Shown: piece by piece, positions 8,447 to 49,141 of the stretch
How the letters are laid out: every line of letters begins with the position of its first letter
Position numbering within the stretch: position 1 is the stretch's first letter
Assembly: GCA_035505215.1 (NCBI GenBank)
Contig: DATJQY010000015.1
Coordinates: 160,387-224,386 of the forward strand
Source: Solirubrobacteraceae bacterium
Lineage (GTDB): Bacteria; Actinomycetota; Thermoleophilia; Solirubrobacterales; Solirubrobacteraceae
Reading direction: 5' to 3'
Length of the DNA stretch: 64,000 bases
The notes under the pieces: generated by a model
Database searches by the model: none
Told to the model about the DNA's origin: nothing
What the model saw: the letters and a program-made list of their open reading frames with translations, nothing else
Made by a program: the position numbers and the translations under genes

Positions 8447-8519
8447 CTCGCGTGAGACGTGTAAGCCCGGCCTAAGTTCAGACGGTTCCCCCGCGCCGAG
8501 CGGCGTAAACCGAATCCCG

Positions 8520-9776: not shown

Positions 9777-9828
9777 GAGCTACCTCTAACGGTCCGCGAA
9801 GAACACCTGAAGGAGCATTACGTCGGAT

Positions 9829-12084: not shown

Positions 12085-12149
12085 CCCTGGATCACCGGGC
12101 GAAGATCTTATGGAGTCACCCCGGCGCCCGCTCCAGCACCACCCGGTTC

Positions 12150-13055: not shown

Positions 13056-13081
13056 CCTCGCTCACGGTAGCGGCGAGCCGG

Positions 13082-31468: not shown

Positions 31469-32845
31469 CTACGTGGTCGACACATAGACGTTCTTCAGCT
31501 CGGTGTAGTGCTCCAGCGCGTGGGGGCCGAGCTCGCGCCCGATCCCCGACTGCTTGAAGCCGCCGAACGGGGTCGTGACCCGGACCGAGGTGTTGGAGTT
31601 GACCGACAGGGTTCCCGCCTCCAGCGCGCGGGCGACGCGGAGCGCCCGGGCGCCGTTGCTGGTCCAGATCGAGCCGCTGAGGCCGTAGATCGTGTCGTTG
31701 GCCAGCCGGATCGCCTGCTCCTCATCCTCGAACGGGATCACCGCCGCGACGGGCCCGAAGATCTCCTCGCGGGCGGCGCGGTCCTCGTTGGAGACCGGGC
31801 AGAGCACGGTAGGGGCAAACCAGAAGCCGGCGCCGTCGGGGGCGCTCCCGCGGATCGCCACCGGGGCATCGGCGTCGACGAAGGAGGCCACCTTCTCACG
31901 CTGGTCGGCGGTGATCAACGGGCCCATCTGGGTCTCCTCGTCGAGCGGGTCGCCCACCCGGAGGGCGTCGATCGCGTCCTCGAGCGAGGACATGAAGCGA
32001 TCGAGCACCGAGCGCTCGACGAGGATCCGGCTGCGCGCGCAGCAGTCCTGGCCGGCGTTCCCGAACACGGCCAGCGGCGCCGCCGCGGCGGCGCGCTCGA
32101 GGTCGGCGTCGGCGAAGATCAGGTTGGCCGACTTGCCCCCCAGCTCAAGCGTGATCCGCTTGATCTGCTGCGAGGCGAGCGCGCCGATCCGCCGCCCGAC
32201 CGCGGTCGAGCCGGTGAACGCGACCTTGGCCACGTCGGGATGCTCGACCAGGCGTTCGCCGACCACCCGTCCGGGCCCGACGACGACGTTCAGCACGCCC
32301 TCGGGGAGCCCCGCCTCAAGCGCGATCTGCTCGAGCTCGATCGCGGTGAGCGGGGTCAGCTCGGCCGGCTTCAGCACGATCGTGTTGCCGGCGGCCAGCG
32401 CCGGCGCGACCTTCCAGCAGGCGATCGGGAGGGGGAAGTTCCAGGGCACGATCATCCCGACCACGCCGAGGGGCTCGCGGAAGGTCAGGTCGACCCCACC
32501 GGCCACGGGGATCGTGTCCCCGAGCAGCCGCTCGGGCGCGCCGGCGTAGTAGCGGAAGGTCTCGACCACCATCCCCACCTCGCCGCGGGCATCGCCGATC
32601 GGCTTGCCCACGTTACGCGCCTCGAGCACGGCGAGGTCCTCGGACCGGGCCTCGATCGCGTCGGCCAGCCGGAGCAGCAGCGCCGCCCGGTCGCCGGGGG
32701 TGACCTCGCGCCAGGCGGGGAAGGCGGCCTTGGCGCGGGCGACGGCCGCGTCGGTCTCCTCGGCACCGGCGTGCGGGAACTCGGCCAGCACCTCCTCGGT
32801 CGCCGGCTCCACGACCTTCAACATCGTCTCGCTGCTCGTTGCCAC
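31469..32845 (-). CDS. Aldehyde dehydrogenase (aminobutyraldehyde dehydrogenase-like)
   Basis: PWNFP, FTGS, LELGGKS, catalytic Cys in GQDCCA, EEIFGP, PFGGFKQSG. Confidence 0.95.
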   Translation of the reverse strand: MATSSETMLKVVEPATEEVLAEFPHAGAEETDAAVARAKAAFPAWREVTPGDRAALLLRLADAIEARSEDLAVLEARNVGKPIGDARGEVGMVVETFRYYAGAPERLLGDTIPVAGGVDLTFREPLGVVGMIVPWNFPLPIACWKVAPALAAGNTIVLKPAELTPLTAIELEQIALEAGLPEGVLNVVVGPGRVVGERLVEHPDVAKVAFTGSTAVGRRIGALASQQIKRITLELGGKSANLIFADADLERAAAAAPLAVFGNAGQDCCARSRILVERSVLDRFMSSLEDAIDALRVGDPLDEETQMGPLITADQREKVASFVDADAPVAIRGSAPDGAGFWFAPTVLCPVSNEDRAAREEIFGPVAAVIPFEDEEQAIRLANDTIYGLSGSIWTSNGARALRVARALEAGTLSVNSNTSVRVTTPFGGFKQSGIGRELGPHALEHYTELKNVYVSTT

Positions 32846-32909: not shown

Positions 32910-34286
32910 ATGAGACCTTTTAGTGAGGGGGCGGCGGTCGTCGATGTCGCGGACAGCCACGTGCTGGCCCCCGAGTTCGATCGGCGCTATCCGATGATCG
33001 TCTCCGGCGACGGCGTGTGGGTGCAGGACGCGGGCGGGCGGCGCTATCTCGATGCGATGAGCGGCGGTTCGATGGCGCTGACCCTGGGGCACGGGCGCCA
33101 GGACCTGATCGAGGCCGCCCGGGCGCAGGCCCAGAAGCTCGCCTTCCTGCACAACGAGCGGCTGACCAACCCGGCCCAGGAGCAGCTGGCCGCGGAGCTG
33201 ACCGCGGTCGCACCGGCAGGGCTGGAGCGCGTTCACTTCGTCACCGGGGGCGCCGAGGCCAACGAGTGCGCGCTCCGGATGGCCCGGAGCTACCACGTCG
33301 AGCGCGGCGAGCCCGGCCGCTGGATCGTCGTCTCCCCCGCCCAGGCCTACCACGGGCCGACGATGGCGACGCTCGCCCTCACCGGCCGGGCCGGCCTCAA
33401 GGGCCCGCTCACCCCCTACCTGCACGAGCTGCCCCACATCCCGCCCAGCACCTGGCGGTTTGACCCCACGGGGGAGGAGGCGCTGGCCGCGCTCGACCGG
33501 GTGCTCGAGCAGGCCGGCCCCGAGAACGTGGCCGCCTTCTTCTGCGAGGCCATCAGCGCCGCCGCGCTCCCCGCCTACACCCCACCGAAGCGCTTCTGGG
33601 AGGGGCTGGCCGAGCGCCGCGAGCGCCATGGCTTCCTCATCTGCTTTGACGAGGTCGTGACCGGGATGGGGCGCACCGGCAGCTGGTTCGCCGCCGATCG
33701 GCTGCCCTTCGTCCCCGACGTGATCGCCACCGCCAAGGGGCTCGGCGCGGGTTACGCGGCGATCGGAGCCACGATCTGCCACGAGCGCGTGTATGAGGCG
33801 GTGGCGGCGGGATCACGGAAGTTCTCCCTCGGCCACACCTGGGACGGGGCGCCGCTCCCCTGCGCGGTCGGGATCGCGGTGATCGACGCGCTCCGCCGCG
33901 AGGGCCTGATCGAGCGGGTCGATCGCCGCGGTGCGCAACTGCGGGCCGAGCTGGCCCAGGCGCTCCAGGACGTGGACATGGTGCGCGAGGTGCGCGGCCA
34001 CGGCTTCCTGCTCGGGATCGAGTACGTCGACCCCCGCGACGGCGAGTCGTTCCTGCCCGCCGAGCTCGGGGTGGCGGGTCGGATCGACGACGCCGCGCTC
34101 GAGGCCGGGCTGGTGATCCTCTCGACGCAGCCCACGGGCGACGGCTACGCCGGCGACCAGAGCCTGTTCGCGCCGCCCTTCACCACCTCCGATGAGGAGC
34201 TCGACGAGATGGTGACCCGCTTTGTGGAGGTGGTGCGCCAGGTGGCGGCCGGCGTCGAGCGCGAGCTGATGGTGCCCGCGCCGTGA
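32910..34286 (+). CDS. Class III PLP aminotransferase (paralogue 1)
   Basis: YLDAMSG, GGAEANE, YHG, FDEVVTGMGRTG, PLP-Lys in AKGLGAGY. Confidence 0.93.
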   Translation: MRPFSEGAAVVDVADSHVLAPEFDRRYPMIVSGDGVWVQDAGGRRYLDAMSGGSMALTLGHGRQDLIEAARAQAQKLAFLHNERLTNPAQEQLAAELTAVAPAGLERVHFVTGGAEANECALRMARSYHVERGEPGRWIVVSPAQAYHGPTMATLALTGRAGLKGPLTPYLHELPHIPPSTWRFDPTGEEALAALDRVLEQAGPENVAAFFCEAISAAALPAYTPPKRFWEGLAERRERHGFLICFDEVVTGMGRTGSWFAADRLPFVPDVIATAKGLGAGYAAIGATICHERVYEAVAAGSRKFSLGHTWDGAPLPCAVGIAVIDALRREGLIERVDRRGAQLRAELAQALQDVDMVREVRGHGFLLGIEYVDPRDGESFLPAELGVAGRIDDAALEAGLVILSTQPTGDGYAGDQSLFAPPFTTSDEELDEMVTRFVEVVRQVAAGVERELMVPAP

Positions 34287-34978
34287 CCCTCCGCGCCCTC
34301 GTCGTCCAGCACGAGCAGCCGACCCCGGGCGGCTACGTCCACCAGTGGCTCCAGGAGCGCGGCGCCGACCAGGACACCTACCGGATCGACGTCGAGGAGC
34401 GCGAGGTCGACCCCCGCGACTACGGGATGATCGTCTCGCTCGGGTCCGAGTTCGCCGCCTTCGATGACTCGATTCCGTGGCTGGAGCGGGAGAAGCGGCT
34501 GCTGCTGGCGGCCACGGAGGCCGACGTTCCGGTGCTCGGCATCTGCTTCGGCGGCCAGTTGCTGGCCCGGCTGCTCGGGGGCCGTTCCTACCGCGGCGAA
34601 GTAGCCGAGATCGGATGGCTGCCCGTGCGCAGCCGCGAGACCGCGCTGGTTCCAAACGGGCCGTGGTTTCAGTGGCACTTCGATACCTTCACCGCCCCCC
34701 CGGGTGCGTCGCTGATCGCCGACAGCCCCGCCGGTCCGCAGGCCTTCACGCTCGGCCGCAGCCTCGGGCTCCAGTTCCATCCCGAGGTGACCCCGGAGAT
34801 CATGGACTCGTGGGTCGCGGTGTACCGGCACGAGCTCGACCAGGAGGGCGTCGACCCCGACCGCCTGCTCGAGGAGACCTACGAGCGCGCCGGCGAGACC
34901 CGGGCCGCGGCCTGGCGCCTGTTCGACGGCTTCCTGGCCCGGGCTCAGGAGCTCGAGGGGGCCGTGCGTGGCGGTTGA
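34283..34978 (+). CDS. Type 1 glutamine amidotransferase-like protein
   Basis: GICFGGQ (Cys) and QFHPE (His-Glu) triad. GTGA overlap with the upstream gene. Confidence 0.92.
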   Translation: MTLRALVVQHEQPTPGGYVHQWLQERGADQDTYRIDVEEREVDPRDYGMIVSLGSEFAAFDDSIPWLEREKRLLLAATEADVPVLGICFGGQLLARLLGGRSYRGEVAEIGWLPVRSRETALVPNGPWFQWHFDTFTAPPGASLIADSPAGPQAFTLGRSLGLQFHPEVTPEIMDSWVAVYRHELDQEGVDPDRLLEETYERAGETRAAAWRLFDGFLARAQELEGAVRGG

Positions 34979-35711
34979 GCCGAACGTGGGCTTCGCCCCC
35001 GTCCAGCAGGTGCGCGCCCACGAGTACGTGGCCGAGCAGGTGCGCCGCCATATCGCCCTGCGGCTGATCGCCCCGGGCGAGTCGCTCCCCCCTGAGCGTG
35101 AGCTCGCCGTCACCTTTGGGGTCGGCCGGCCGACCATCCAGCACGCCCTGCGCCTGCTCGAGGCCGACCGCCTGGTCGAGGCCCGGCGCGGCCGCCACGG
35201 CGGTACCTTCGTCTCCGAGCCCGAGGCGGACACCGACGCGATGGACGAGCTCCTGGCGCGGGTGGCCCGCGCGCGCGAGGAACTCGAGGAGGTGCTGGCC
35301 TATCGCCGGGTGATCGAGCCCCGCGTGGCCCGGGAGGCGGCGCGCACGCGCCGGCGCGTGGATCTGACGGCGATGTCACGTGCCATCGCCGGCATGGCCG
35401 AGGCGGTCAGCGAGCCCGACTACATGCGCCACGACACCGAGTTTCATCTCGCCGTCGCGCGCGCCGCCCGCAACCGGTTCCTGCTCGGTGCGATCGAGGA
35501 CGTGCGGCTGCGCCTCAACGACGTCATGAGCCTCCTGCCGGAGTCCGACACCTGGCACCGCCGGCTGGGGGGCGAGCACGAGGCGATCCTGAGCGCGATC
35601 GAGGCCCGCGATGCCGACGCCGCCGAGCACGCGATGGATCTCCACGTGGCCGCCAGTGAGCTGAGTGTGAAGGCGCTGATGACGGCGATCCGGAGGAGGC
35701 CGGCGACGTGA
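34968..35711 (+). CDS. GntR/FadR-family regulator (FCD domain)
   Basis: LPPERELA..FGVGRPTI..AL, GRHGGTFV, D.EFH.A.A, EH.AI..AI...D. Confidence 0.92.
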   Translation: MAVEPNVGFAPVQQVRAHEYVAEQVRRHIALRLIAPGESLPPERELAVTFGVGRPTIQHALRLLEADRLVEARRGRHGGTFVSEPEADTDAMDELLARVARAREELEEVLAYRRVIEPRVAREAARTRRRVDLTAMSRAIAGMAEAVSEPDYMRHDTEFHLAVARAARNRFLLGAIEDVRLRLNDVMSLLPESDTWHRRLGGEHEAILSAIEARDADAAEHAMDLHVAASELSVKALMTAIRRRPAT

Positions 35712-37057
35712 TCACCGCCGAGGAGACTCACGTCTTCCCCCGCTTCCTCGACCTGGCCTACCCCAACGTCGAGCGGGGCCAGGGCGTACGGCTCTACACG
35801 AGCGACGGCTTCGAGGTGCTCGACGCCTGCTCGGGGGGCGCGATGGTGGCGTGCCTGGGCCACGGCGATGAGTCGATCGTCGAGGCCGCCCGCGCCCAGG
35901 CGGAGCGGATCTCCTATGTCTATAACCACCACTTCACCAATGAGCCGCAGGAGCTCCTGGCCGACCGGCTGATCGAGCTGACGGCGCCCGAGATGGCGCG
36001 CGTGCGCTTCGTCTCCGGCGGCTCTGAGGCCAACGAGACGGCGCTCCGCCTGATCCGCCAGTACCACGTCGACCGGGGCGAGGCGGGTCGGTGGCGGATC
36101 ATCTCGCCCGCCCAGGCCTACCACGGGGCGCTGTTCGGGGCGCTCGCGCTGACCGGCCGCCCGAGCCTCCAGCGCCCCTACGGCGAATACCTCCCCGATC
36201 ACCTGCACATCGCGCCGGCGACGTGGCGCTTTGATCCCTCGGGGCAGGCGGCGCTCGAGGAGCTCGACCGCCTGCTTAAGGCGGCGGGCCCGGAGACCGT
36301 GGCCGCCTTCATGTGCGAGCCGGTGAGCGCGGCGGCGCTGCCCGGCTACACCCCGCCGGAGAGCTTCTGGCAGGGGCTCGAGGCCCGCCGCCGCGAGCAC
36401 GGCTTCCTGATCTGCTTCGACGAGGTGGTCACCGGGATGGGCCGGACGGGGAGTTGGTTCGCCTCCCAGCAGGTGCCGATCGAGCCCGACGTGGTCACGG
36501 GGGGCAAGGGCCTCGGCGCCGGCTACGCGCCGCTGGCCGCGACCCTGTGCACGGCTGAGGTGTTCGATGCGCTGGCCGCCGGCTCGCGGAACTTCGAGCA
36601 CGGCCACACCTGGGACGGGGCGCCGCTCCCCTGCGCGGTCGGGCTGGCGGTGCTCGATGCGTTAGTTGAGCGCGGCCTGCTCGAGCGCGTCCGCGGCCGG
36701 GGCCCATCGCTGCGCGAGGAGCTCGAGCAGGCGCTGGCCGGCTTCGAGATCGTCCGCGAGGTGCGCGGCCGGGGCTTCCTGCTCGGGGTCGAGTTCGTCG
36801 ACCCCCGCGACGGCGAGTCGCTCCTGCCCGACGAGCTCGACGCCGCCGCGCTGATCGACGACACGGCGTTTGAGCACGGCGTGCTCGTCACCTCGTCACA
36901 CTCGACCGCCGACGGCTTCACCGGAGATCAGACCCTGCTCGCCCCGGCCTTCATCGCCACCGACGCCGAGCTCGGTGAGATGGTCGAGCGCTTCGCCGCC
37001 GCGGTGGCCGACGTCGAGCGGGCCGTCAAGTCCTCGCTCGCGGGGGCGTCGGCGTGA
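35708..37057 (+). CDS. Class III PLP aminotransferase (paralogue 2)
   Basis: LDACSG, GGSEANE, YHG, FDEVVTGMGRTG, GKGLGAGY. Visibly colinear with paralogue 1. Confidence 0.93.
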   Translation: MITAEETHVFPRFLDLAYPNVERGQGVRLYTSDGFEVLDACSGGAMVACLGHGDESIVEAARAQAERISYVYNHHFTNEPQELLADRLIELTAPEMARVRFVSGGSEANETALRLIRQYHVDRGEAGRWRIISPAQAYHGALFGALALTGRPSLQRPYGEYLPDHLHIAPATWRFDPSGQAALEELDRLLKAAGPETVAAFMCEPVSAAALPGYTPPESFWQGLEARRREHGFLICFDEVVTGMGRTGSWFASQQVPIEPDVVTGGKGLGAGYAPLAATLCTAEVFDALAAGSRNFEHGHTWDGAPLPCAVGLAVLDALVERGLLERVRGRGPSLREELEQALAGFEIVREVRGRGFLLGVEFVDPRDGESLLPDELDAAALIDDTAFEHGVLVTSSHSTADGFTGDQTLLAPAFIATDAELGEMVERFAAAVADVERAVKSSLAGASA

Positions 37058-38385
37058 CCTCGCTCTCCGACCTCCCGCGCGCCAGCGGCGCCGGCGGCGG
37101 AGCGCCCGCCGCGGGTGAGTTCGTGCTCCTGGGCATGCCCGACGTCAACGGCTCGGTCCGCGGCAAGGCGCTCCGACCGGACGCGTTCGAGGCCGCAGTC
37201 GAGGGCGGCGCGGTGATGACCGACCTGCTCCTGGCGCTCGACCCGACGGATACTCCGATCACCGACTACGAGCGCTTCGGGATCCGCTCGGGGGCGGGCG
37301 ACCTCGTCGTCCAGCCCGATCTCGCCACCCTGCGCGAGCTCTCCTGGCTGCCGGGATGGCGCATCTGCCTGTGCACTCCGGCGTGGCCGGACGGCAGCCG
37401 CTGCGAGCTGTCCTCACGTGAGACGCTCCGGGGCGCGCTGGAGCAGATTGCCGCCCAGGGCTACGAGACGATGGCCGCCTTCGAGTACGAGGTGCGGCTG
37501 CGCGACGGCGATGACGCGCCCCTGTCCAGCGGGCTCAGCTACAGCCTGAGCGAGATCTCCCGCTTCGAGCGCTTCGTGGCCCAGCTCGTTCCGGCGCTCG
37601 AGGCGCTCGGGGTCGAGCTCTCGGCCGTCCACACCGAGGCCGGGCCGGGGCTGCTCGAGCTGAACCTCGCCGCCCGAGAGGGCCTGCGCGCCGCCGACGA
37701 TGCCGTGTTCGTCAAGCTCGCAGTCCGGGAGGTCGCCGCCTCGATGGGGCTGCACGCGAGCTTTCTGGCCAAGACCAAGCCGGGCGAGGAGGGCTCGAGC
37801 GGGCACGTCCACCTGTCGTGCTGGGCCGACGGCGTGAACGCGTTCGGCGCCGGCGAGTCCGACGAGCTGCCGGCACCGTTCAGCGCCGCGATCGCGGGCG
37901 TGCTTGAGCACCTGGGGGCCGCGTCGCTGATGCTGTGTCCGACGATCAACTCCTACAAGCGGCTCGTCCCGGGCTGGTTCGCGCCCGTGAACGTGAGCTG
38001 GGGGCTCGAGAACCGCTCCTGCGCCGTGCGGGCGATCCGGGGGGCGCGGCCCGAACGGTGGCGGATCGAGTGCCGGCGCCCCGGCGCCGACGCCAATCCG
38101 TATCTGGCCCTGGCCGCGCTGGCCGTGTCGGCGGCCGACGGGATGGCCCGTGGCGCCACGCCGCCGGCGCCGATCGAGGGTGACGCCTCGGAGCGCACCG
38201 ACCTGCCGGCGCTGCCGGGGTCGCTCGAGTCCGCGCTGATCGCCTTCGACCGCGACGAAGGCTTCCGCCGCCTGATCGGCGAGACGTTCTGCGACTACTA
38301 CCGGACCTCGCGCGCCTGGGAGCTCGCGGCCTGGCGGGAGTCGGTCAGCGACTGGGAGCGCGAGCGCTACGAACGTGCCGTCTGA
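37054..38385 (+). CDS. Glutamine synthetase-like gamma-glutamyl-amine ligase (1)
   Basis: D.NG..RGK, EYE, HTEAGPG.LE, GSSGHVH, NSYKRL, WGLENRS, ECRRPGADANPY. Confidence 0.92.
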   Translation: MTSLSDLPRASGAGGGAPAAGEFVLLGMPDVNGSVRGKALRPDAFEAAVEGGAVMTDLLLALDPTDTPITDYERFGIRSGAGDLVVQPDLATLRELSWLPGWRICLCTPAWPDGSRCELSSRETLRGALEQIAAQGYETMAAFEYEVRLRDGDDAPLSSGLSYSLSEISRFERFVAQLVPALEALGVELSAVHTEAGPGLLELNLAAREGLRAADDAVFVKLAVREVAASMGLHASFLAKTKPGEEGSSGHVHLSCWADGVNAFGAGESDELPAPFSAAIAGVLEHLGAASLMLCPTINSYKRLVPGWFAPVNVSWGLENRSCAVRAIRGARPERWRIECRRPGADANPYLALAALAVSAADGMARGATPPAPIEGDASERTDLPALPGSLESALIAFDRDEGFRRLIGETFCDYYRTSRAWELAAWRESVSDWERERYERAV

Positions 38386-39097
38386 GCCGGTGATCGGAAT
38401 CTGTGCCGTGCGCGAACAGGCGCGCTGGGCGTTCTGGGATCAGCCGGCGCACCTGGTGGCGGACTCCTACGTCGCCTCGGTGCAGCGCACCGGCGCGGTC
38501 GCCGTGCTCCTGCCGGTCGACTCCCGCGCCCCGGTCGAACTGCTCGAGCGGATCGACGCGCTCCTGCTCATCGGCGGCGCCGACATCGAGCCCGCGCTCT
38601 ACGGCGAGCCGCGGGCTCCGGAGACCGAGGCCACCTACCCGGAGCGCGACGAGTTCGAGATCGCCTTGCTCTTGGGGGCGCTGGCCCGCGAGCTTCCGGT
38701 TCTGGGCGTGTGCCGCGGCATGCAGATCCTCAACGTCGCCCTCGGCGGCACGCTTCAGCAGAGCCTCGGCGCTGAGGACGGCAACCATCCTCACCGCAAG
38801 GCGCTCGGGAGCTTCGAGGGCACCGACCACGTGGTCCAGCTCGAGCCCGGGTCGCTCGCGGCCCAGGCGGCGGGCGAGGAGCGACACGTTGCCCGCTGTC
38901 ATCACCATCAGGCCGTGGGTCGGCTCGGCGACGGGCTCGTGGTCACCGGGCGCTCGGCCGACGGGGTGATCGAGGCGATCGAGACCAGCTCGGGCGGCTG
39001 GACGCTCGGCGTCCAGTGGCACCCCGAGGCCGACGAGCGCAGCCGCCTGTTTCACGCCCTCCACGCTGCGGCGGAGCGCTATGCCCTGGTCAAGTGA
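38375..39097 (+). CDS. Gamma-glutamyl-gamma-aminobutyrate hydrolase family (PuuD/peptidase C26)
   Basis: LLLIGGADIEP.LYG, RDEFE, GVCRGMQ..NV..GGTL.Q, HHHQ, GVQWHPE. Confidence 0.92.
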   Translation: MPSEPVIGICAVREQARWAFWDQPAHLVADSYVASVQRTGAVAVLLPVDSRAPVELLERIDALLLIGGADIEPALYGEPRAPETEATYPERDEFEIALLLGALARELPVLGVCRGMQILNVALGGTLQQSLGAEDGNHPHRKALGSFEGTDHVVQLEPGSLAAQAAGEERHVARCHHHQAVGRLGDGLVVTGRSADGVIEAIETSSGGWTLGVQWHPEADERSRLFHALHAAAERYALVK

Positions 39098-39863
39098 GGT
39101 GGTGAGCGCCGTCGCGGAGGCCCAGCAGAAGGACAACCTGTGCGGGCCGTTTCACGCCGCCCGGATCCTCCGCGAGGCCGGCGGGGCGGACGATCCCCTC
39201 GACCAGGATCTGGTTGCCCTGCACGCGGGGACGGAGCTTCCCGAGCGCGAGCTCGGGCCGCAGGTGCCGCCCGGCGCGGTGAACCGCCGCGACTATCGGT
39301 TCGAGCTTCCACGGGTTGACGAGTCGCGGGCGGGCACCTCGGCCGCGGGCTTGGCGGCGGCGATCGCCGAGCTCTCGGGCGGCCGCCTGCGCTGCGTGCC
39401 GGCGAGCGGGGACTGGAGCGCGAGCGTGGTGGAGCAGATGGTCCTCCGCGGTCGCTCTTTGGACGCGCGGCTCCTGGCCAACCTCCAGACCGGCCTGCTG
39501 TGGGGGAGCCGGCCGCCCATCGAGTCACTGCTATCGGTACTGGCGGGAGACGAGCCCGGCGACGGGGCGCCGGCGGCGGAGTGGGACGTCGGGCACTTCG
39601 TCGAACTCGTCCAGGTGGTGCGCGGTCACGGCGGAGCGCTCGTGATCGTCCGGGACTCATATCCGTCGCTGGGGTGGAACGGGGTGCATCTCCAGCCCCC
39701 CGCGGCGCTGGCCGCCGCCCTGCTCCGGGGCGACGGACGGGGCGGCGGGATCCTGGCCGTGGCCGTCCCGGAGGCGGTCCCGGCGGTGGAGGAACTGATC
39801 GCCGGGCTTGGGCTGGCCAGCCAGATGTGGGATAACTGCACGGGAGGAGAGACACCGAGATGA
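39081..39863 (+). CDS. Hypothetical papain-fold (C39/phytochelatin-synthase-like) Cys-His-Asp protein
   Basis: QQKDNLCG near the N-terminus, GHFVEL and VIVRDSY downstream. Overlaps both neighbouring genes. Confidence 0.55.
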   Translation: MPWSSEVVSAVAEAQQKDNLCGPFHAARILREAGGADDPLDQDLVALHAGTELPERELGPQVPPGAVNRRDYRFELPRVDESRAGTSAAGLAAAIAELSGGRLRCVPASGDWSASVVEQMVLRGRSLDARLLANLQTGLLWGSRPPIESLLSVLAGDEPGDGAPAAEWDVGHFVELVQVVRGHGGALVIVRDSYPSLGWNGVHLQPPAALAAALLRGDGRGGGILAVAVPEAVPAVEELIAGLGLASQMWDNCTGGETPR

Positions 39864-41203
39864 CCATCGCCGAAGAGCAGTCGGCCAGCGCCGAGGAGGT
39901 CCTGTCCACCTGGCGCGAGCAGGGAATCCGCAACGTCCGCTTCGAGCTCCCGGACATGCACGGCGAGAGCCGCTCCAAGCTCGTACCGATCGAGCACGCG
40001 CCGCGCTTCGCCGCCGATGGGCTGAACATGTACGGCGGGACGGTCGTGCTCGACACTCGCTCCGACGTCGTCCCGGGGACGCTCTACAACGAGGAGATCG
40101 GGTACGCCGACCAGCGCCTGAAGCCCGATCCGAGCACCGCCGCGATCGTCCCCTGGGCCAAGGCCACAGGGCGGATGATCTGCGATGCCTTCTGGGATGA
40201 CGGCACCCCCCTGGGGGCGGCGCCCCGGCAGGTCTTCCGGCGGGTGCTGACCCGCTGCCGGGAGCTCGGCTACGAGCCGCTGATCGGCGTCGAGCCCGAG
40301 TTCTACCTGCTCGACGCGCAGACCAAGGAGCCCCTGTTTGAGGGCTACCACATCTTCAACACGGTGCGGAACACGTGGGTACCGGCGATCGAGCGGATCG
40401 TCGCCGAGACGCGCCAGTTCGGGATCGACATCATCACCGCCAACTGCGAGTACGCCGGCTCCCAATGGGAGATCGTGTTCGGCCCCTCGAGCGGCCTGGC
40501 CGGCCCCGACGCCGCCTTCAGCTTCAAGAACGCGGCCAAGGAGCTGGCTCACCAGGAGGGGCTGCTCGCCACCTTCATGTCGAAGCCGTTCGAGGACTCG
40601 GCCGGTTGCGGCGCCCACAACCACATCGGGCTGCTCCACCGCGAGGGTGGCGAGAACGCCATGTCCGACGACGCCCACGAATGGGGCCTCTCGCCCGTCG
40701 GCCGGAGCTTCATCGCCGGCCAGCTCCGCCACGCGCGCTCGATCTACACCCTGCTCGCCCCCACGATCAACTGCCTGAAGCGGCGCCGGACCCATACCTT
40801 CTCTCCCACCAACGTCTCCTGGGGGCTCGAGGACCGCAGCGCCTTCATTCGCGTCAAGGGCGGCGACGTCAAGAACAAGCACGTCGAGAACCGCGCGCCG
40901 ACGGGGCTCTCGAACCCGTACCTGGCCAGCGCCGGGCTGCTCGGCGCCGGGCTGCTCGGGATCGCCGACGAGCTAGAGCTGGAAGCGCCGGCCCAGCGCC
41001 CGGCCGAGGAGGACGAGTCCAAGCCGAAGCTGCCCACCACGGTCGAGGAGTCGCTCTCAGCCCTTGAGGCCGACGCCAAGATCGTCGACATGCTGGGCCA
41101 GGAGTTCGTCACCGCCTACGCCGCGATGCGTCGCTACGAGCTCCAGCGCTTCGCCGATCACGTCACCGACTGGGAGCGCGAGGAGTACCTCGAGCTGCAC
41201 TGA
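39860..41203 (+). CDS. Glutamine synthetase-like gamma-glutamyl-amine ligase (2)
   Basis: DMHG.SRSK, EPEFY, EYAGSQWE, SKPF...AGCGAHNH, NCLKR, WGLEDRS, ENR.P...NPY. Confidence 0.93.
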   Translation: MTIAEEQSASAEEVLSTWREQGIRNVRFELPDMHGESRSKLVPIEHAPRFAADGLNMYGGTVVLDTRSDVVPGTLYNEEIGYADQRLKPDPSTAAIVPWAKATGRMICDAFWDDGTPLGAAPRQVFRRVLTRCRELGYEPLIGVEPEFYLLDAQTKEPLFEGYHIFNTVRNTWVPAIERIVAETRQFGIDIITANCEYAGSQWEIVFGPSSGLAGPDAAFSFKNAAKELAHQEGLLATFMSKPFEDSAGCGAHNHIGLLHREGGENAMSDDAHEWGLSPVGRSFIAGQLRHARSIYTLLAPTINCLKRRRTHTFSPTNVSWGLEDRSAFIRVKGGDVKNKHVENRAPTGLSNPYLASAGLLGAGLLGIADELELEAPAQRPAEEDESKPKLPTTVEESLSALEADAKIVDMLGQEFVTAYAAMRRYELQRFADHVTDWEREEYLELH

Positions 41204-41215
41204 GCCGGGCCCCGC

Positions 41216-41986
41216 TCAGGGCTCGGTCAAGTACGCGGCGGTGATTCCGCCGTCGACCAGGAACTCGGTCCCCGTCACCCAGGCCGCGTCATCGCTGGCC
41301 AGATACAGCGCCGCCTTGGCGATGTCCTGCGGCTCGCCGAACCGGCCGGCCGGAATGTGGTTGAGCCGGTTGGCGCGCTTCTGGGCGTCCGAGATCAGAT
41401 ACTCGAACAGCGGGGTGCGGACGGGTCCGGGGCAGATCGCGTTGGCGCGGATGCCGTGGCGCGCGTACTGCACCGCGATCTCCCGCGTCATCGCGAGCAC
41501 GCCGCCCTTGCTCGTCGTGTAGGCGATCTGAGGCGCGGCGGCGCCCATCAGGGCCACGAACGAGGCGATGTTGATGAGCGACCCCGTCCCGTCGGTGTCC
41601 AGCATCAGCGGCACGGCGTGCCGGCAGGACAGGAACACCCCGGTGAGATTGACCGCGATGACCTGGTCCCAGACCTTAAGCGGGGTCTCGGTCACCCCCT
41701 CATCGCGGGGATCCATGATCCCTGCGTTGTGGACGCTGATATCGAGCCGGCCGTGGGTGCTCCGGACGGCTTCGAAGACCTCCCGCGTCGAGGCGTCCTG
41801 TGAGACGTCACCGGCGACGAACGTCGCCTCCGGGCCGATCTCCGAGACCGTGCGCTCACCGGCCGCGGCGTCGATGTCATTGACCACGACCTGGGCTCCC
41901 TCGGCGGCGAACAGGATCGCCATCTCCTTGCCGAGCCCCGAGCCGGCGCCGGTGATCAGGGCGACCTTCCCATCGAGACGAGGCAT
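41216..41986 (-). CDS. Short-chain dehydrogenase/reductase
   Basis: TGAGSGLG, NAG, S, YTTSK, ANAICPG. Resembles the SDR that accompanies actinobacterial glnA4 clusters. Confidence 0.93.
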   Translation of the reverse strand: MPRLDGKVALITGAGSGLGKEMAILFAAEGAQVVVNDIDAAAGERTVSEIGPEATFVAGDVSQDASTREVFEAVRSTHGRLDISVHNAGIMDPRDEGVTETPLKVWDQVIAVNLTGVFLSCRHAVPLMLDTDGTGSLINIASFVALMGAAAPQIAYTTSKGGVLAMTREIAVQYARHGIRANAICPGPVRTPLFEYLISDAQKRANRLNHIPAGRFGEPQDIAKAALYLASDDAAWVTGTEFLVDGGITAAYLTEP

Positions 41987-42682: not shown

Positions 42683-44923
42683 ATGTTGACCAGTGGGATC
42701 CGTAGGCACGGGTCGTTCTCTGAGGGATCACGCCTGGCGCGAGGCCGGCTCCTGGGTTGTTTGGGGGCAAGCTTGGTGCTCGCGCTCGTGCTCGCGCCGG
42801 GCGCCGTTGCGGCCCGGGGGCACGATCACGGCTGGGGGCACCCGCGTCTCACTCTGGTCTCCGTGTCCAACCCGCGCCCGGAACTGGTCAGCGGCGGCGA
42901 AGTGCTGGTGCGAGCCGATCTCGGCAAGGGGGTCGACCCCGCCGATGTGCGGATCTCCTCGAATGGCCAGGACGTCACGTCCAGCTTCCAGCGGCAGCCC
43001 GACGGGAGCCTGCTCGGGCTGGTCACCGGCCTGGCGATCGGTCCTAACCGGCTCGTCGCTTCCGTGGGCCGACGCTTCGCCTCGTCGCTTGACGTCGTTG
43101 ACCACTCGGTCAACGGGCCGGTCTTCTCCGGCAAGCAACAGCTTCCGTTCGTCTGCCAGACGACGACCTTCGGGCTCGCGGCCTCGAGCCCGCCTGACTG
43201 CTTCGCACCGACGGTCGTCTCGTACGTGTACAAGAACACCTCCGGGGCGTTCGTGCCGCTGGCCGATCCCGCGAGCGTTCCGGCTGATGCGGCGACGGCG
43301 ACGGTGAATGGGCAGAGCGTGCCGTATGTCGTGCGGATTGAGACCGGAGTGATCGACCGGGCCGTCTACCAGATGGCGGCCCTGTACGACGGGCAGGCCC
43401 CATCCCCGCTAAAGCCCGACACGAGCTGGAACGGCAAGCTCATCTACACCTTCGGTGGCGGCTGCAACTCCGGCTACACCCAGGGCACCGCGACGGGCGG
43501 GGTGCTCGACGATCAGTTCCTCTCGCTGGGTTACGCCGTGGCGTCATCGACCCTCAACGTGCTCGACCAAGATTGCTCGACAATCATCTCGGCCGAGGCC
43601 GCGATGATGGTGAAGGAGCACTTCATCGACACCTACGGGCCGACGCAGTTCACCATCGGCTGGGGCGGCTCAGGCGGCGCGATTCAGCAGTACGAGATCG
43701 CTGATTCCTATCCCGGGATCCTGGACGGCATCGTCCCGAGCATCTCGTTCCCCGACCCGCTGACCACCGCGGGGCCGGTCACCGACTGCAGGCTGCTCGA
43801 CTCGTTCTTCGCCGGGCCGGGATCGTCGTTCACGACCGCGGAGAAGACCGCCATCGCCGGCTACAACGACTACACCACCTGCGTGTCCTGGGATGACACG
43901 TTCGCGAACCGGGCGACCGCCACCGGCAGCTGCAACCCGGCGATCATCCCACCCGCCGAGCAGTGGAGCCCGTCGAACCCGGGCGGGATCATCTGCAACT
44001 CCGACGAGCAGATCGTCAACCAGCTCGGGGTCGATCCCACCACCGGCTTCCCCAACAGCCCGCTTGACAATGTCGGCGTGCAATATGGGCTTGCCGCTCT
44101 GAACTCGGGGGCCATCACGCCGGCTCAGTTCGCCACCCTCAACGCGGACATCGGCGGGATGAACTACGCCGGCGCGCCGGTTCCGCAGCGAACCGAGGCG
44201 AGCTTGAAGGCACTGCGTGCTGTCTACGCCGACGACCTGGTCAACAGCGGGTCACTCGGGCTGCGCACGACACCCGTCATCGACCAGCGCCTCGACCTCG
44301 ATTTCCTCGGCTTCGGAAACGACATCCACACCACCGACTGGTCGTTCATCATCCGCGCCCGGATGCTCGGGGCCAACGGGACCGACGGCAACCAGGTGAT
44401 CATCGAGACCGAGCCCACGGCGGCGGAGATCGGCGCGGCCGACACCTACGAACTGGCGGAAATGGACGCCTGGCTGACCAACATCGAGAACGATCATTCG
44501 CATCGCGACGCCCAGCAGAAGGTCCTCGACGACAGGCCGTCCGGGTTGAGTGACGGCTGCTACCTGTCGGCTACCGACCTCTTGAACCAGACCCTCACCG
44601 ACCCGGGTACCGGGCAGTGCGGCACCGTCTACCCGGTGGCTTCGAACCCCCGTCTGGTGGCCGGGGAGCCACTGTCGATGCCCGCCCTGAAGTGCGGCCT
44701 GAAGCCGCTGAACTTCCGCGATTACTCGGTGAGCTTCACCGCGGCCGAACAGGCCGAACTCCGCCAGGCCTTCCCCACCGGGGTCTGCGACTACAACCGA
44801 CCGGGGGTCGGCGTTCAGCGGCCGATCGCCAGCTGGCTCAGCTACGGTGACAACCCCGATGCCGTCATCGGTCCGTTCCCGCTGCCACCGCCGCCGAGCA
44901 CCCGAGCCTGGGCGGCTAGATAG
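42683..44923 (+). CDS. Secreted tannase-like alpha/beta hydrolase (DUF6351-like)
   Basis: Signal peptide, SNPRPELVSGG, WNGKLIYTFGGGC, nucleophile-elbow GWGGSGG. Family name recalled from memory. Confidence 0.7.
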   Translation: MLTSGIRRHGSFSEGSRLARGRLLGCLGASLVLALVLAPGAVAARGHDHGWGHPRLTLVSVSNPRPELVSGGEVLVRADLGKGVDPADVRISSNGQDVTSSFQRQPDGSLLGLVTGLAIGPNRLVASVGRRFASSLDVVDHSVNGPVFSGKQQLPFVCQTTTFGLAASSPPDCFAPTVVSYVYKNTSGAFVPLADPASVPADAATATVNGQSVPYVVRIETGVIDRAVYQMAALYDGQAPSPLKPDTSWNGKLIYTFGGGCNSGYTQGTATGGVLDDQFLSLGYAVASSTLNVLDQDCSTIISAEAAMMVKEHFIDTYGPTQFTIGWGGSGGAIQQYEIADSYPGILDGIVPSISFPDPLTTAGPVTDCRLLDSFFAGPGSSFTTAEKTAIAGYNDYTTCVSWDDTFANRATATGSCNPAIIPPAEQWSPSNPGGIICNSDEQIVNQLGVDPTTGFPNSPLDNVGVQYGLAALNSGAITPAQFATLNADIGGMNYAGAPVPQRTEASLKALRAVYADDLVNSGSLGLRTTPVIDQRLDLDFLGFGNDIHTTDWSFIIRARMLGANGTDGNQVIIETEPTAAEIGAADTYELAEMDAWLTNIENDHSHRDAQQKVLDDRPSGLSDGCYLSATDLLNQTLTDPGTGQCGTVYPVASNPRLVAGEPLSMPALKCGLKPLNFRDYSVSFTAAEQAELRQAFPTGVCDYNRPGVGVQRPIASWLSYGDNPDAVIGPFPLPPPPSTRAWAAR

Positions 44924-45758: not shown

Positions 45759-47150
45759 ATGGCCAGAGCCGGGACTGGGCAGAGCGGCTGGCGCGTCGCG
45801 CCGGCGTCTACGCTGCCCCGGCTCAGATCGCACCTAACGAGGGTTCCGACAAGCGTCTGGATCTGGCTGGCGATCGCACTGGCGCTCCGGGTGCTGCTGG
45901 TGGCGCTGACCTGGCACACGAAGCTCACGCTCGACCCCAGCGATTTCAACCGCAGCGCCGCCTCGATCGCCGGCGGCCACGGCTATCCACCCACCAATCG
46001 AGCCCCGGGCGGGGGACCGAGTGCGTTTCGGCCACCCGCCTACCCCTTCCTCCTGGCCGCCGTCTACGTGTTCGCCGGACACCCGGACCCGGCGGCCGGA
46101 CGGCTGGTGGGAGCCTGTCTGGGCCTCGCATCGGTCGCCCTGATCACGCTGATCGCGTTTCGCCTCTGGGGCCGGCGCGTGGCCATGGTCGCCCTCGGGA
46201 TCGCGGCCGTCGCCCCTCCGCTGGTTGTGCTGAGCACGGCATTGATCTCCGAGGCGCTGGTCGTTCCGCTGATTCTGGCGGCGGTGCTGGCGGCCCTGGA
46301 GGCCCGGACGAGCCCCCGACCGATCCGGTGGGCGATCCTCACCGGGGTGCTCGTCGGCCTGGCCGCGCTCACGCGGACGAACGCCCTCATCCTGCTGATC
46401 CCGTTTGCGCTCGCGTTCCTCCCGCATACCGCGTGGCGCCGGCCGAGGAGCTGGGTCGCGCCGGCGGTGGTGATCCTCGCCGCCGGGCTGACGATCGCGC
46501 CATGGACGATTCGCAACGCGGTCGTGTTCGGTCGGTTCATCCCGATATCGGACGAGAGCGGCTACACGCTGGCCGGAACCTATAACCAGGTCTCACGCGC
46601 CAGCACGCGCTTTCCCGCCAACTGGATCGAGGCCGAGCACGGTGCCTCACCTGAATACGCGCGGATCCTGCAGACCGCGCGGCGGGAACGCTGGAACGAG
46701 CCGACGTACGGAAGTCACCTCCAGGCCCAGGCCTTCCAGGAAATCGCAAGCCATCCGGCCTACGTGCTCAAGGTGGCCTACTGGAACGCCATCCGCATGT
46801 TCGACGTGGCGGAGATCCGCTTGGCGCGCAACAACCTGGCCAACACCGACATTCCGCTCGCCCCGGCGCTGGCGCTCATGAACTCGGCGCCGTTGCTCGA
46901 GGTGCTGGCGCTGGGCGGCCTCCTCATCCGAGCCGCGCGGCGGGTGCCGAGGTGGTTCTGGCTCGTCCCGCTGAGCCTTCTGACCACCCTTTTCGTGAGC
47001 GGATTCATCCGCTTCCGTGCCCCGATCGATCCGTTCCTGGTCATGCTGGCGGCGCTGTTCTTGACCGACATCTGGGAGTCGATGTTCCGAGGGCGCAGCC
47101 GCCAGGGCGCCGCCACCGGAGGGGCCGGGGCCTACTCGGCCGGCTCGTAG
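45759..47150 (+). CDS. GT39/ArnT-like (GT-C) membrane glycosyltransferase
   Basis: Multi-pass protein with D...F...A, FRPPAYP, ISEAL, LTR.N and PWTIRN. Confidence 0.8.
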   Translation: MARAGTGQSGWRVAPASTLPRLRSHLTRVPTSVWIWLAIALALRVLLVALTWHTKLTLDPSDFNRSAASIAGGHGYPPTNRAPGGGPSAFRPPAYPFLLAAVYVFAGHPDPAAGRLVGACLGLASVALITLIAFRLWGRRVAMVALGIAAVAPPLVVLSTALISEALVVPLILAAVLAALEARTSPRPIRWAILTGVLVGLAALTRTNALILLIPFALAFLPHTAWRRPRSWVAPAVVILAAGLTIAPWTIRNAVVFGRFIPISDESGYTLAGTYNQVSRASTRFPANWIEAEHGASPEYARILQTARRERWNEPTYGSHLQAQAFQEIASHPAYVLKVAYWNAIRMFDVAEIRLARNNLANTDIPLAPALALMNSAPLLEVLALGGLLIRAARRVPRWFWLVPLSLLTTLFVSGFIRFRAPIDPFLVMLAALFLTDIWESMFRGRSRQGAATGGAGAYSAGS

Positions 47151-47488
47151 CCGGCCAGCACCGCGTCGAGCAGCCCGGGGAAGCGGGCCTCGATGTCGTC
47201 GCGGCGCAAAGAGTTCACGCGCTTGGTCCCCGCGACCCGCTGGCGGATCAGGCCAGATTCACGCAGCACCCGGAAGTGGTGCGTGCAGGTCGACTTGACG
47301 ATCGGCAGGTTGAAGCTGTTGCACGTCCGCTCCCCCCCGCCGGCGGCCAGCTCGACCACGATGCGCAGGCGCATCGGGTCGCTCAGCGCGTGCAGGATCT
47401 CGGCCAGAGTCAGCGCATCCCGAGGTGGATGCTCGAGCGGCGCAATCTCCTCGGCCCCCGCCGCGCTGTGTACCGAAAACGTCTCCAT
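47132..47488 (-). CDS. ArsR/SmtB-family regulator
   Basis: LHALSDPMRLRIV, KST.THHFRVLRESGLI. RBS GGAGGAG before ATG 47488. Confidence 0.9.
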   Translation of the reverse strand: METFSVHSAAGAEEIAPLEHPPRDALTLAEILHALSDPMRLRIVVELAAGGGERTCNSFNLPIVKSTCTHHFRVLRESGLIRQRVAGTKRVNSLRRDDIEARFPGLLDAVLAGYEPAE

Positions 47489-47501
47489 TACTCCTCCCAT
47501 T

Positions 47502-47549
47502 GTACGACGCCCATCGAACTTTTGCTACGATGTTCGATAGTCATCGTAC
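47502..47549. promoter_or_regulatory. Paired pseudo-palindromic operator candidates between ArsR and MFS
   Basis: GTACGAC-GCCC-ATCGAAC (47502-47519) and GTTCGAT-AGTC-ATCGTAC (47532-47549) are inverted copies of one motif. Confidence 0.65.
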
Positions 47550-47566
47550 TCGATCTGAGGAGGCTT

Positions 47567-49141
47567 ATGGCGACGGAGACAACCACTGAACGTCAAGGCA
47601 GGCAACGGTCCCGCCGGCCCGCGGCCGGCGCGTGCCCGGCGGAGCGGAGCGTCCGGCCGGCTCAGGGCGCGGCACCCGCCGAGCCCGAGCATCGCCACCT
47701 CAGGGCCACCCTCATCCTGGCCTGCCTGGCCCAGTTCATGGTCATCCTCGATGTCTCCGTCGTCAACGTCGCGCTGCCGTCGATCGGCAACGCGCTCCAC
47801 TTCTCCGAGACCGACCTGCAGTGGGTGGTCAACGCCTACACGGTGACCTTCGGCGGCTTCCTCCTCCTCGGCGGGCGCGCCGCCGACCTGTTGGGACGCC
47901 GCCGAGTCTTCGTGGCCGGGCTCACGCTGTTCGCCCTCACCTCGCTCGTCTGCGGGGTGGCTGACTCGCGGGTCACGCTGATCGCGGCCCGGGCGGTCCA
48001 GGGGCTATCGGCCGCGGTGATCGCCCCCGCCTCGCTGTCGATCCTCACCCACACGTTCCGGGAAGGCGCGGCGCGCAACCGCGCCGTCGGGATCTGGGGC
48101 GCCATGGGTGGCGCCGGCGGCGCCGCCGGCGTCCTCTTGGGCGGGATCCTCACCCAGGCGCTCAGCTGGCGCTGGATCTTCTTCATCAACCTGCCCATCG
48201 GCCTGGGCGCCGCGCTCCTGACCCAGTACTACGTGGCCGCGCTGCGCGACACGAGCCAGAGGCGCAGCTTCGACCTGCGGGGCGCCGTCTCGGCCACGCT
48301 CGGTCTGACCCTGCTCGTGCTCGGGATCGTCCGCACCGGGACGATCGGGTGGGGCTCGCCGCAGACGATCGCCACGCTGGCCGTCGGCGTCATCCTCGTC
48401 GGCCTGTTCCTGGCCATCGAGGGCAGGTTTGCCAGCGCGCCCCTGATGCCGCTGCGGATCTTCAAGTCGAGGACGCTCACGGCCGCGAACCTGATCGTCT
48501 TCACGATCGGCGCCGCGTCCTTTGCCATGTGGTACTTCCTCACCCTCTATCTCCAGGAGGTGCAGGACTTCTCGCCGCTGAGAACCGGCCTGACGTTCCT
48601 GCCCATGACGCTCTCGATCATCGCGGGATCGACGATCGCCTCACGCCTGGTCGGCCGCGTCGGGTATAAGCGCCTACTCGTCTTCGGGATGGCGCTCCAG
48701 GCCATCGGCCTCCTGCTCCTCAATGGCATCTCGGCCGGGGGGACCTACGCGGGCGAGCTGCTCATCCCCTCGCTGCTCGTGGCCTTCGGCATCGGCCTCG
48801 CCTTCGTCTCAGGCACCATCGCCGCCGTGAGCGGAGTCCCCTCGCACGAGGCCGGGCTCGCCTCGGGGATCGTCAACACCGCGCGCATGGTCGGAGGCGC
48901 CCTGGGGCTCGCGGTGCTGGCCGCGGTGGCCACGAGCAAGACCAACGAGCAGGTCAAGGCGGCCGGCGCCCACGCCTCGCCGCACATCCTGCACGTGGCC
49001 CTGACCAGCGGCTTCGAGCTCGCGTTCGTGGTCGCCGGCGTGTTTGCCGCCGCCGGGGCGGCGGTCGCGCTCTTCGGCCTGCCCTCGATCTCCCCCCGCC
49101 GCGCCACGGCCCAGCAGGAAGTAGCCGTCGAGAGCGCATAA
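47567..49141 (+). CDS. MFS efflux transporter, DHA2 (EmrB/QacA) family
   Basis: D.SVVNVALP.I, GGRAADLLGRRR, WRWIFFIN.PIG, about 14 TM. RBS GAGGAGG before ATG 47567. Confidence 0.93.
   Translation: MATETTTERQGRQRSRRPAAGACPAERSVRPAQGAAPAEPEHRHLRATLILACLAQFMVILDVSVVNVALPSIGNALHFSETDLQWVVNAYTVTFGGFLLLGGRAADLLGRRRVFVAGLTLFALTSLVCGVADSRVTLIAARAVQGLSAAVIAPASLSILTHTFREGAARNRAVGIWGAMGGAGGAAGVLLGGILTQALSWRWIFFINLPIGLGAALLTQYYVAALRDTSQRRSFDLRGAVSATLGLTLLVLGIVRTGTIGWGSPQTIATLAVGVILVGLFLAIEGRFASAPLMPLRIFKSRTLTAANLIVFTIGAASFAMWYFLTLYLQEVQDFSPLRTGLTFLPMTLSIIAGSTIASRLVGRVGYKRLLVFGMALQAIGLLLLNGISAGGTYAGELLIPSLLVAFGIGLAFVSGTIAAVSGVPSHEAGLASGIVNTARMVGGALGLAVLAAVATSKTNEQVKAAGAHASPHILHVALTSGFELAFVVAGVFAAAGAAVALFGLPSISPRRATAQQEVAVESA

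Follow-up and report, generated by a model that had tools for sequence, protein, structure and literature searches.

DUF6885, a predicted papain-fold thiol enzyme family linked to glutamine synthetase-like ligases of amine catabolism

The gene at positions 39081 to 39863 (+ strand) of a 64,000-nucleotide stretch of Solirubrobacteraceae DNA (contig DATJQY010000015.1; the whole stretch is referred to as the window) encodes a 260-aa protein, by translation, of the Pfam family DUF6885 (PF21819), a divergent, predicted papain-fold Cys-His-Asp enzyme. Two conclusions about this family are firmly supported. Structural modeling indicates that DUF6885 is a papain-fold thiol enzyme, conserved across the family and with its Gln/Cys/His/Asp set intact, and gene neighborhoods indicate that it is functionally tied to glutamine synthetase (GS)-like gamma-glutamyl-amine ligases in amine catabolism. 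Because a papain-type fold and these residues occur together with a GS-like neighbor in almost all cases, DUF6885 probably acts on an amide bond in amine breakdown, either cutting or transferring it. We infer the catalytic activity itself, the ligase product as its substrate, and the bond cleaved.

The window protein matches PF21819 over profile positions 10 to 251 of 251 (E = 2.5e-70; 236.9 bits against a cut-off of 27), and all of the 60 aligned relatives match the family as well. Near the N terminus, the segment A-Q-Q-K-D-N-L-C-G contains Q16-K-D-N-L-C21-G22 (39126 to 39146, + strand), which would supply an oxyanion Gln (Q16, codon 39126 to 39128) and a nucleophilic Cys (C21, codon 39141 to 39143), as suggested by conservation, a helix start, and an alignment with C39_2. 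The putative general-base His lies in G171-H172-F-V (39591 to 39602, + strand; H172 codon, 39594 to 39596), and exactly 20 residues after it follows the putative third triad residue, D192 (codon 39654 to 39656), in V-I-V-R-D192-S-Y194 (residues 188 to 194; 39642 to 39662, + strand). An earlier note on this DNA had pointed out the Q-x-K-D-N-L-C-G, GHFV, and VIVRDSY motifs, with ∼20 residues between the last two, and all of them are present in the translation. The note had also named conservation of the Cys, His, and Asp beforehand as a test, and these residues are indeed conserved: among 60 diverse DUF6885 members of 25 to 60% identity, on which all conservation counts are based, C21 is present in 59 (one has Ser), H172 in 60, and D192 in 58 (two have Glu), and Q16 is likewise found in 60/60. 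The motif flanks are similarly constrained (G22, 58/60; G171, 59/60; F173, 55/60; Y194, 57/60). Other near-invariant residues are G85, T86, N134, W168, Y194, Q205, R216, and W250, and the polar ones (T86, N134, Y194, Q205, and R216) would suit a fixed small polar ligand. Given the PF21819 match and the fact that no columns of the family are better conserved than those of the motif residues, the catalytic-type motifs of the window open reading frame (ORF) are, at the sequence level, not due to chance. Counted from the invariant Q16, the Gln-to-Cys spacing is Q-x4-C; Q15 would give an x5 spacing to C21 but is not conserved.

The AlphaFold2 model of the window protein (predicted local distance difference test score [pLDDT], 92.8) places C21 at the opening of helix 21-32, H172 at the opening of strand 171-181, and D192 after strand 186-191. 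A second model, made for a DUF6885 member that is 25% identical (pLDDT, 97.7), has the same layout of secondary structure. In Foldseek searches of the PDB, the top 50 matches listed for each of the two models are all papain-fold (clan CA) enzymes, with template modeling scores (TM-scores) of 0.4 to 0.7. The matches of the window model, which include staphopain, Der p 1, cathepsins, bleomycin hydrolase, CtaG, and SpvD, are weak (best E = 2.3e-3), and the homolog's model has 27 matches at E ≤ 1e-3, including staphopain (E = 2.4e-5) and C1-type enzymes. The homolog's model also matches the primitive Nostoc phytochelatin synthase (PCS) Alr0975 (6tho; E = 2.1e-4) with a TMq of 0.45, the highest among the matches listed, and the C39 domain of PCAT1 with a TMt of 0.70. 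In profile-profile alignments with hhalign, an actinobacterial Peptidase_C39_2 set was matched at P = 3.8e-4 over 169 columns, with Q16, C21, H172, and D192 colinear in the catalytic columns and Q16 fitted to the Gln of C39_2 through a gap. The corresponding values were P = 7e-3 for BtrH_N and P = 0.22 for Transglut_core (PF01841).

Searches with hidden Markov models (HMMs) separate DUF6885 from these families. The window protein and its genome copy are unmatched by PF03412, PF13529, PF05023, and PF14399, and the window protein gives nothing at E ≤ 1 with the C39 HMMs. A Pfam scan of the 60 relatives at E ≤ 10 returned one weak PF03412 match (E = 0.025) and no PCS match. No PF13529 or PF05023 member was found in the genome of the window, and none of PF05023 was found in 151 genomes of the phylum and the control genomes; with no PF05023 members for a PCS alignment, the PCS likeness of DUF6885 therefore comes from Foldseek only. 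The DUF6885 protein also has no PF07722 or PF00117 match, the C26 member being the upstream gene (38375 to 39097). A 2023 classification in JBC places C39, C39_2, BtrH_N, C83, staphopain, and papain together in "cluster I" (PMC10318531). Because the C39, C39_2, PCS, and BtrH_N HMMs are unmatched, DUF6885 is, as judged from sequence profiles, a separate family in this papain-like cluster, outside C39 and C83. The earlier description of a C39/PCS-like papain-fold protein thus holds for the fold and the resemblance seen with Foldseek and hhalign but not for membership in C39 or C83.

Linkage to GS-like genes, which the earlier note had proposed as a check, is very strong among the homologs. A total of 80 related loci were collected with a closer alignment (A2), which biases the set toward motif-bearing relatives; as an offset, six loci from a genome search and four very divergent members were added. 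In 63 of the 72 loci with enough downstream sequence, DUF6885 is immediately followed on its strand by a GS-like gene that starts within 700 nt, and 76/80 loci have a GS-like gene within 3 kb, with contig ends cutting two of the four exceptions. In the members that are ∼25% identical to the window protein, the GS-like gene is instead directly upstream (4/4). Adjacency to a Gln-synt_C gene by chance would be expected at ∼0.3% in the genome of the window, which has 5 such genes in 3.76 Mb.

The loci fall largely into two contexts, and the neighbors are always genes of amine or amino acid catabolism or uptake, including those for aminotransferases, aldehyde dehydrogenase (ALDH), glutamine amidotransferase (GATase)/PuuD, M20D, flavin amine oxidases, APC permease, and ABC importers. 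In type A (38 loci), the operon is arranged as in the window, with or without PuuD and often with an APC permease and a divergent ALDH. In type B (30 loci), DUF6885 is accompanied by a GS-like ligase and an M20D amidohydrolase. A Rubrobacter version of type B has the order permease, GS, DUF6885, GS, M20, (SDR), Amidohydro_2; in such loci (L074, L072, and L060), Amidohydro_2 follows the GS-DUF6885-GS-M20 block. This arrangement recalls fungal FluG, in which an amidohydrolase is paired with a GS-like part (PMC6478659). In a divergent, probably archaeal clade, GS precedes DUF6885 and M20, and an ABC importer comes next. The most divergent member (L179; GCA_054002995.1, 4685 to 12861; 25% identity) has a GS-like gene, DUF6885, M20, and a Liv-type ABC importer, and the OapB/OapC (haloarchaeal-type) and GCHY-1 genes next to it suggest an archaeal genome. 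A further locus (L014; genome G154, 7978 to 13709) consists of two paralogous flavin amine oxidases with a 4-nt overlap, DUF6885, an M20D amidohydrolase, and a PucR-type regulator. In the DUF6885 tree, the clades track context type, and the type A clade spans phyla, indicating that the operon has been transferred. DUF6885 stays 40 to 60% identical, whereas the partner ligases are only ∼30% identical to each other.

DUF6885 is a small family: it makes up 262 clusters at 50% identity within a set of 1.84 billion representatives, and GTDB species genomes contain 363 loci. The family is represented in Thermoleophilia (Solirubrobacterales and Gaiellales), Rubrobacteria, Acidimicrobiia, Dormibacterota, and Acidobacteriota. 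Within the phylum, 9/401 genomes carry it, and none of the sampled relatives from the same genus or family as the window genome does. The Pfam entry exists but has no assigned function, solved structure, or literature: no paper was found that names the family, no NCBIfam model matches the protein, and PDB searches by sequence, with both the single sequence and a 60-sequence profile, gave no relevant relatives (spurious ornithine monooxygenase matches, E ∼ 0.6). The only domain fusion seen is a 606-aa protein (P0187) with an EamA transporter domain N-terminal to DUF6885, either a real fusion or a gene-call artifact, and it is uninformative. Sequence inspection found no signal peptide or transmembrane segment, and the DUF6885 protein is predicted to be cytosolic and stand-alone.

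The linkage is one-sided. Orthologs of GS-like ligase 2 (GS2), the partner ligase in the window, were found at ≥61% identity in 8 of the same 401 genomes, of which 2 (the window's genome and G287) have DUF6885. The other six (L173 to L178, in genomes G261, G196, G157, G088, G248, and G365) have GS2 transcribed divergently from an operon of aminotransferase 1 (AT1), GATase, AT2, and GS-like ligase 1 (GS1), and the intergenic space is 70 to 220 nt or is filled by a GAF-PucR regulator (∼680 to 820 aa), which adjoins GS2 in two of them. These six operons indicate that DUF6885 is accessory and not an obligatory step after the ligase. As far as gene content tells, the dependence is thus asymmetric: DUF6885 relies on GS-like ligases, whereas the ligase pathway can do without DUF6885. 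The GS2 orthologs with and without an adjacent DUF6885 gene are colinear and 70 to 77% identical within one family; that of G287 is 75 to 77% identical to unlinked relatives in the same family and has no extra segment. Processing of a GS2 propeptide by DUF6885 was considered and rejected, as the linked copies have no extension or insert of their own.

Judged from its genes, the window cluster is a gamma-glutamylation-type amine catabolic cluster. On the + strand, it comprises a class-III (omega) aminotransferase (AT1; 32910 to 34286; PF00202, E = 6.9e-82); a class-I GATase-like protein (34283 to 34978; PF00117, E = 4.7e-11), a candidate gamma-glutamyl amide hydrolase conserved in type A loci; a GntR/FCD (FadR-type) regulator (34968 to 35711; PF07729 and PF00392); a second class-III (omega) aminotransferase (AT2; 35708 to 37057; PF00202, E = 5e-82); GS1 (37054 to 38385; Gln-synt_C, E = 1e-83), whose best NCBIfam match is gamma-glutamylputrescine synthetase, below cut-off; a PuuD-like hydrolase of the class-I amidotransferase fold (Peptidase_C26; 38375 to 39097; PF07722, E = 2.4e-62); DUF6885; and its conserved partner GS2 (39860 to 41203; Gln-synt_C, E = 1e-81). 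The position of DUF6885 between the PuuD-like C26 gene and a GS-like gene, as described earlier, is therefore borne out. Upstream, on the − strand, lies a divergent aminobutyraldehyde/PuuC-like ALDH (31469 to 32845; PF00171, E = 3.4e-174; best NCBIfam match, aminobutyraldehyde dehydrogenase), which is kept in 17 loci, and downstream an SDR oxidoreductase (41216 to 41986, − strand; PF13561, E = 2.5e-66) is convergent with the operon and holds the same position in the closest loci. Neither GS-like ligase reaches any NCBIfam cut-off, not even that for GlnA or gamma-glutamylputrescine synthetase (PuuA), and better GlnA candidates are located elsewhere in the genome. The PuuD-like C26 gene is found in only some type A loci. 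Replacement of PuuD by DUF6885 was rejected as an explanation, since the window and ∼13 loci have both genes and the presence of PuuD varies independently.

The stop codon of DUF6885 (TGA, 39861 to 39863) overlaps the GS2 start codon (ATG, 39860 to 39862) in an ATGA arrangement, and a GGGAGGAG sequence is located ∼10 nt upstream of this ATG. On the upstream side, the result differs between the two possible start codons: the ATG at 39081 gives a 17-nt overlap with the PuuD-like gene (stop, 39095 to 39097), whereas the GTG at 39102, used in the database gene call (P0001, 253 aa), leaves a 4-nt gap and no overlap. Of the two overlaps claimed previously, the downstream one stands and the upstream one applies to the ATG start only. 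The region from 32910 to 41203 contains paralogous pairs of class-III aminotransferases and of GS-like ligases, along with two class-I GATase-fold proteins. The paired aminotransferases match each other's orthologs at ∼57 to 59% identity and the paired GS-like ligases at ∼30%, and both sets of paralogs are conserved together across phyla. Beyond the cluster are two large ORFs, 42683 to 44923 and 46952 to 49141 (both + strand; 746 and 729 aa), the first with a hydrophobic, signal-peptide-like N-terminal segment.

Among characterized enzymes, Alr0975 of Nostoc PCC 7120 (C83, PF05023) resembles DUF6885 in its papain fold, its Gln/Cys/His/Asp set, and a GHF-type His ∼20 residues before the Asp. 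This cytosolic enzyme acts on a small gamma-glutamyl compound via a thioester, and the title of PDB entry 6tho refers to an Alr0975 acyl intermediate. DUF6885 differs in having no PF05023 match and only 14% identity, and to our knowledge PCS is not linked to GS-like ligases, unlike DUF6885. The bond cut by PCS is the Cys-Gly bond of glutathione and not the gamma-glutamyl bond; the PCS analogy therefore points to a bond other than the one implied in the earlier note. C39 and C39_2 (PF03412 and PF13529; PCAT1 domain, 7n87) provide the best profile-profile match, but DUF6885 has no C39 HMM match and an x4 Gln-Cys spacing, and in contrast to C39 domains, which occur in ABC exporter fusions and cut double-glycine leaders, it stands alone among GS-like, C26, aminotransferase, and M20 genes. 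Staphopains (C47; 1cv8, 1pxv, and 8oig) are the top Foldseek matches of both models (E = 2.3e-3 and 2.4e-5; TMt, 0.51 to 0.61); however, they are secreted proteases with propeptides and are 11 to 14% identical to DUF6885, which has an additional beta-alpha-beta-alpha insert (approximately residues 100 to 155) and a C-terminal beta-alpha unit. An analogy is offered by Gss of Escherichia coli, which joins an ATP-dependent polyamine amide ligase to a papain-superfamily (CHAP) Cys-His amidase able to undo the conjugation. Unlike the ATP-grasp and CHAP fusion of Gss, the ligase here is of the GS fold and the C39/PCS-like protein is encoded by a separate gene. BtrH (PF14399) shows a weak profile match (P = 7e-3) that aligns the Cys, His, and Asp and the "HLQP...AAL.R" segment that follows, but DUF6885 has no BtrH_N HMM match and neither acyl carrier protein (ACP) nor aminoglycoside genes nearby. 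BtrH is a papain-fold (PMC10318531) ACP:aminoglycoside acyltransferase of butirosin biosynthesis that moves a gamma-glutamylated acyl group to an amine.

At the pathway level, the operon logic is that of E. coli PuuA/PuuD and Streptomyces coelicolor GlnA2/GlnA3/GlnA4. It comprises a GS-like gamma-glutamyl-amine ligase, oxidation or transamination, ALDH, and a glutamate-releasing amide hydrolase (PMC9397018, PMC5403932, and PMC6529630). In those pathways the hydrolase is a class-I GATase-fold C26 enzyme, whereas DUF6885 is present in addition to a neighboring C26 gene. A literature search found no description of a GS-like ligase paired with a papain, C39, or BtrH-type protein. The Haloferax glnA-2/glnA-3 cluster was rejected as a characterized relative; the H. 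volcanii control genome has no DUF6885, and the paper on this cluster describes only a transporter between the two genes.

We tentatively favor, at slightly less than an even chance, a role for DUF6885 as a thiol amidase or transamidase that acts on the gamma-glutamylated product of the ligase, as an accessory partner in amine catabolism. The GS-like ligase would first join glutamate to an amine using ATP. DUF6885 would then attack an amide bond of this product through a Cys21 thioester, with His172 as the predicted general base, Asp192 orienting it, and Gln16 in the oxyanion hole. The target could be the gamma-glutamyl amide or, as in PCS, an amide farther along, for which the gamma-glutamyl group would be the recognition handle, and the acyl group would pass to water or to another amine. 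This role is favored because the partner ligases have diverged far more than DUF6885 itself, which suggests recognition of the gamma-glutamyl part common to their products, because its many invariant polar residues suit a fixed polar ligand, and because PCS and BtrH, among its structural and profile relatives, handle gamma-glutamyl compounds via thioesters.

Several observations weigh against this assignment. The likeness to clan CA is at the level of the fold (TM, 0.4 to 0.6; 10 to 14% identity), and the Gln-Cys spacing of x4 departs from the x5 of papain and C39. The amine oxidase and M20 locus L014 has DUF6885 without a GS-like gene. In L010 (genome G164, 8804 to 10406), DUF6885 adjoins a 257-aa ORF with a weak, below-cut-off Gln-synt_N_2 match (E = 5.7e-5), beyond which lies a phosphoglucose isomerase gene; this ORF may be a decayed ligase partner. 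Six of the eight genomes with a GS2 ortholog have no DUF6885 anywhere, yet they keep AT1-GATase-AT2-GS1 and GS2. Finally, every context already has a candidate gamma-glutamyl hydrolase (the GATase and/or PuuD in type A and M20D in type B), which would make a plain hydrolase redundant. In view of these last two points, the third hydrolase proposed in the earlier note is one reading among several. Given this other candidate terminal hydrolase and the dispensability of the gene, the reaction is unlikely to coincide with the PuuD step and is more likely to be a reversal, a transfer, or the cleavage of a distal amide in the manner of PCS.

DUF6885 could instead act before the ligase, hydrolyzing an N-acyl or peptidyl amine conjugate, such as an acylated polyamine or an amino acid amide, so that the amine set free is captured by the GS-like ligase. 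The asymmetric dependence, in which DUF6885 rarely occurs without a GS-like gene while GS2 operons exist without DUF6885, fits an optional enzyme that widens the substrate range, and it does so equally well as it fits action on the ligase product. The DUF6885 gene is upstream of the ligase gene in most loci, importers for peptide- or amide-like solutes are nearby (SBP_bac_5, Liv-type ABC, and APC permease), and the co-occurring M20D amidase suits substrates with several amide bonds. However, such an enzyme would be expected to vary with its substrate, and DUF6885 is much more conserved than the diverse ligases (∼30% identity); moreover, the gene order in the divergent clade is GS, DUF6885, M20. 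We regard this alternative as unlikely, although it deserves to be taken seriously.

A role at the protein level, in which DUF6885 processes, demodifies, or binds the GS-like enzyme or another protein, appears improbable. In its favor, proteases (staphopain, C1, and C39) make up most of the nearest structural relatives of DUF6885, and translational coupling to GS2 could serve the assembly of a stoichiometric complex. The unchanged GS2 sequences, colinear and with no extension or insert specific to the DUF6885-linked copies, disfavor this role; in addition, DUF6885 occurs with M20 and amine oxidases where the GS-like gene is absent, and the many invariant polar residues around the putative triad suit a fixed small ligand. 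By far the least probable is that the protein is an ordinary member of a known family, either a C39 double-glycine leader peptidase or a true glutathione-acting PCS. The Q...C/GH/D arrangement, the weak PF03412 match of one relative, and the presence of Alr0975 and PCAT1 among the Foldseek matches speak for it, but the unmatched HMMs effectively refute membership, and an ABC exporter fusion, bacteriocin gene, signal peptide, and transmembrane segment are all absent from a context of amine catabolism.

Gamma-glutamylation is the main bacterial route by which polyamines, ethanolamine, arylamines, and other amines are detoxified or used. We know of no papain-fold enzyme in the described set, which consists of a GS-like ligase, an oxidase or transaminase, an ALDH, and a class-I GATase hydrolase. 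The present analysis adds the accessory status of DUF6885, the trio with M20D, and the profile ranking. With a conserved thiol enzyme that accompanies GS-like ligases in several bacterial phyla and a probable archaeon, gamma-glutamylation would gain a new reaction, which could be reversal, transfer, or handle-directed cleavage, and a Pfam DUF would gain a function. A bolder and rather improbable extension would make DUF6885 the first member of a new class of PCS-like thiol transamidases for which the gamma-glutamyl group is the handle. In this scheme, an amino-amide or peptide-like amine would receive a gamma-glutamate tag from the ligase; DUF6885, by way of a gamma-Glu-X thioester, would then carry out cleavage or transfer at the next amide; and an M20D or GATase hydrolase would finally take the tag off. 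If true, this would constitute a "tag, cut, untag" module driven by ATP or, alternatively, a way of making new gamma-glutamyl peptides, common to several bacterial phyla and probably archaea.

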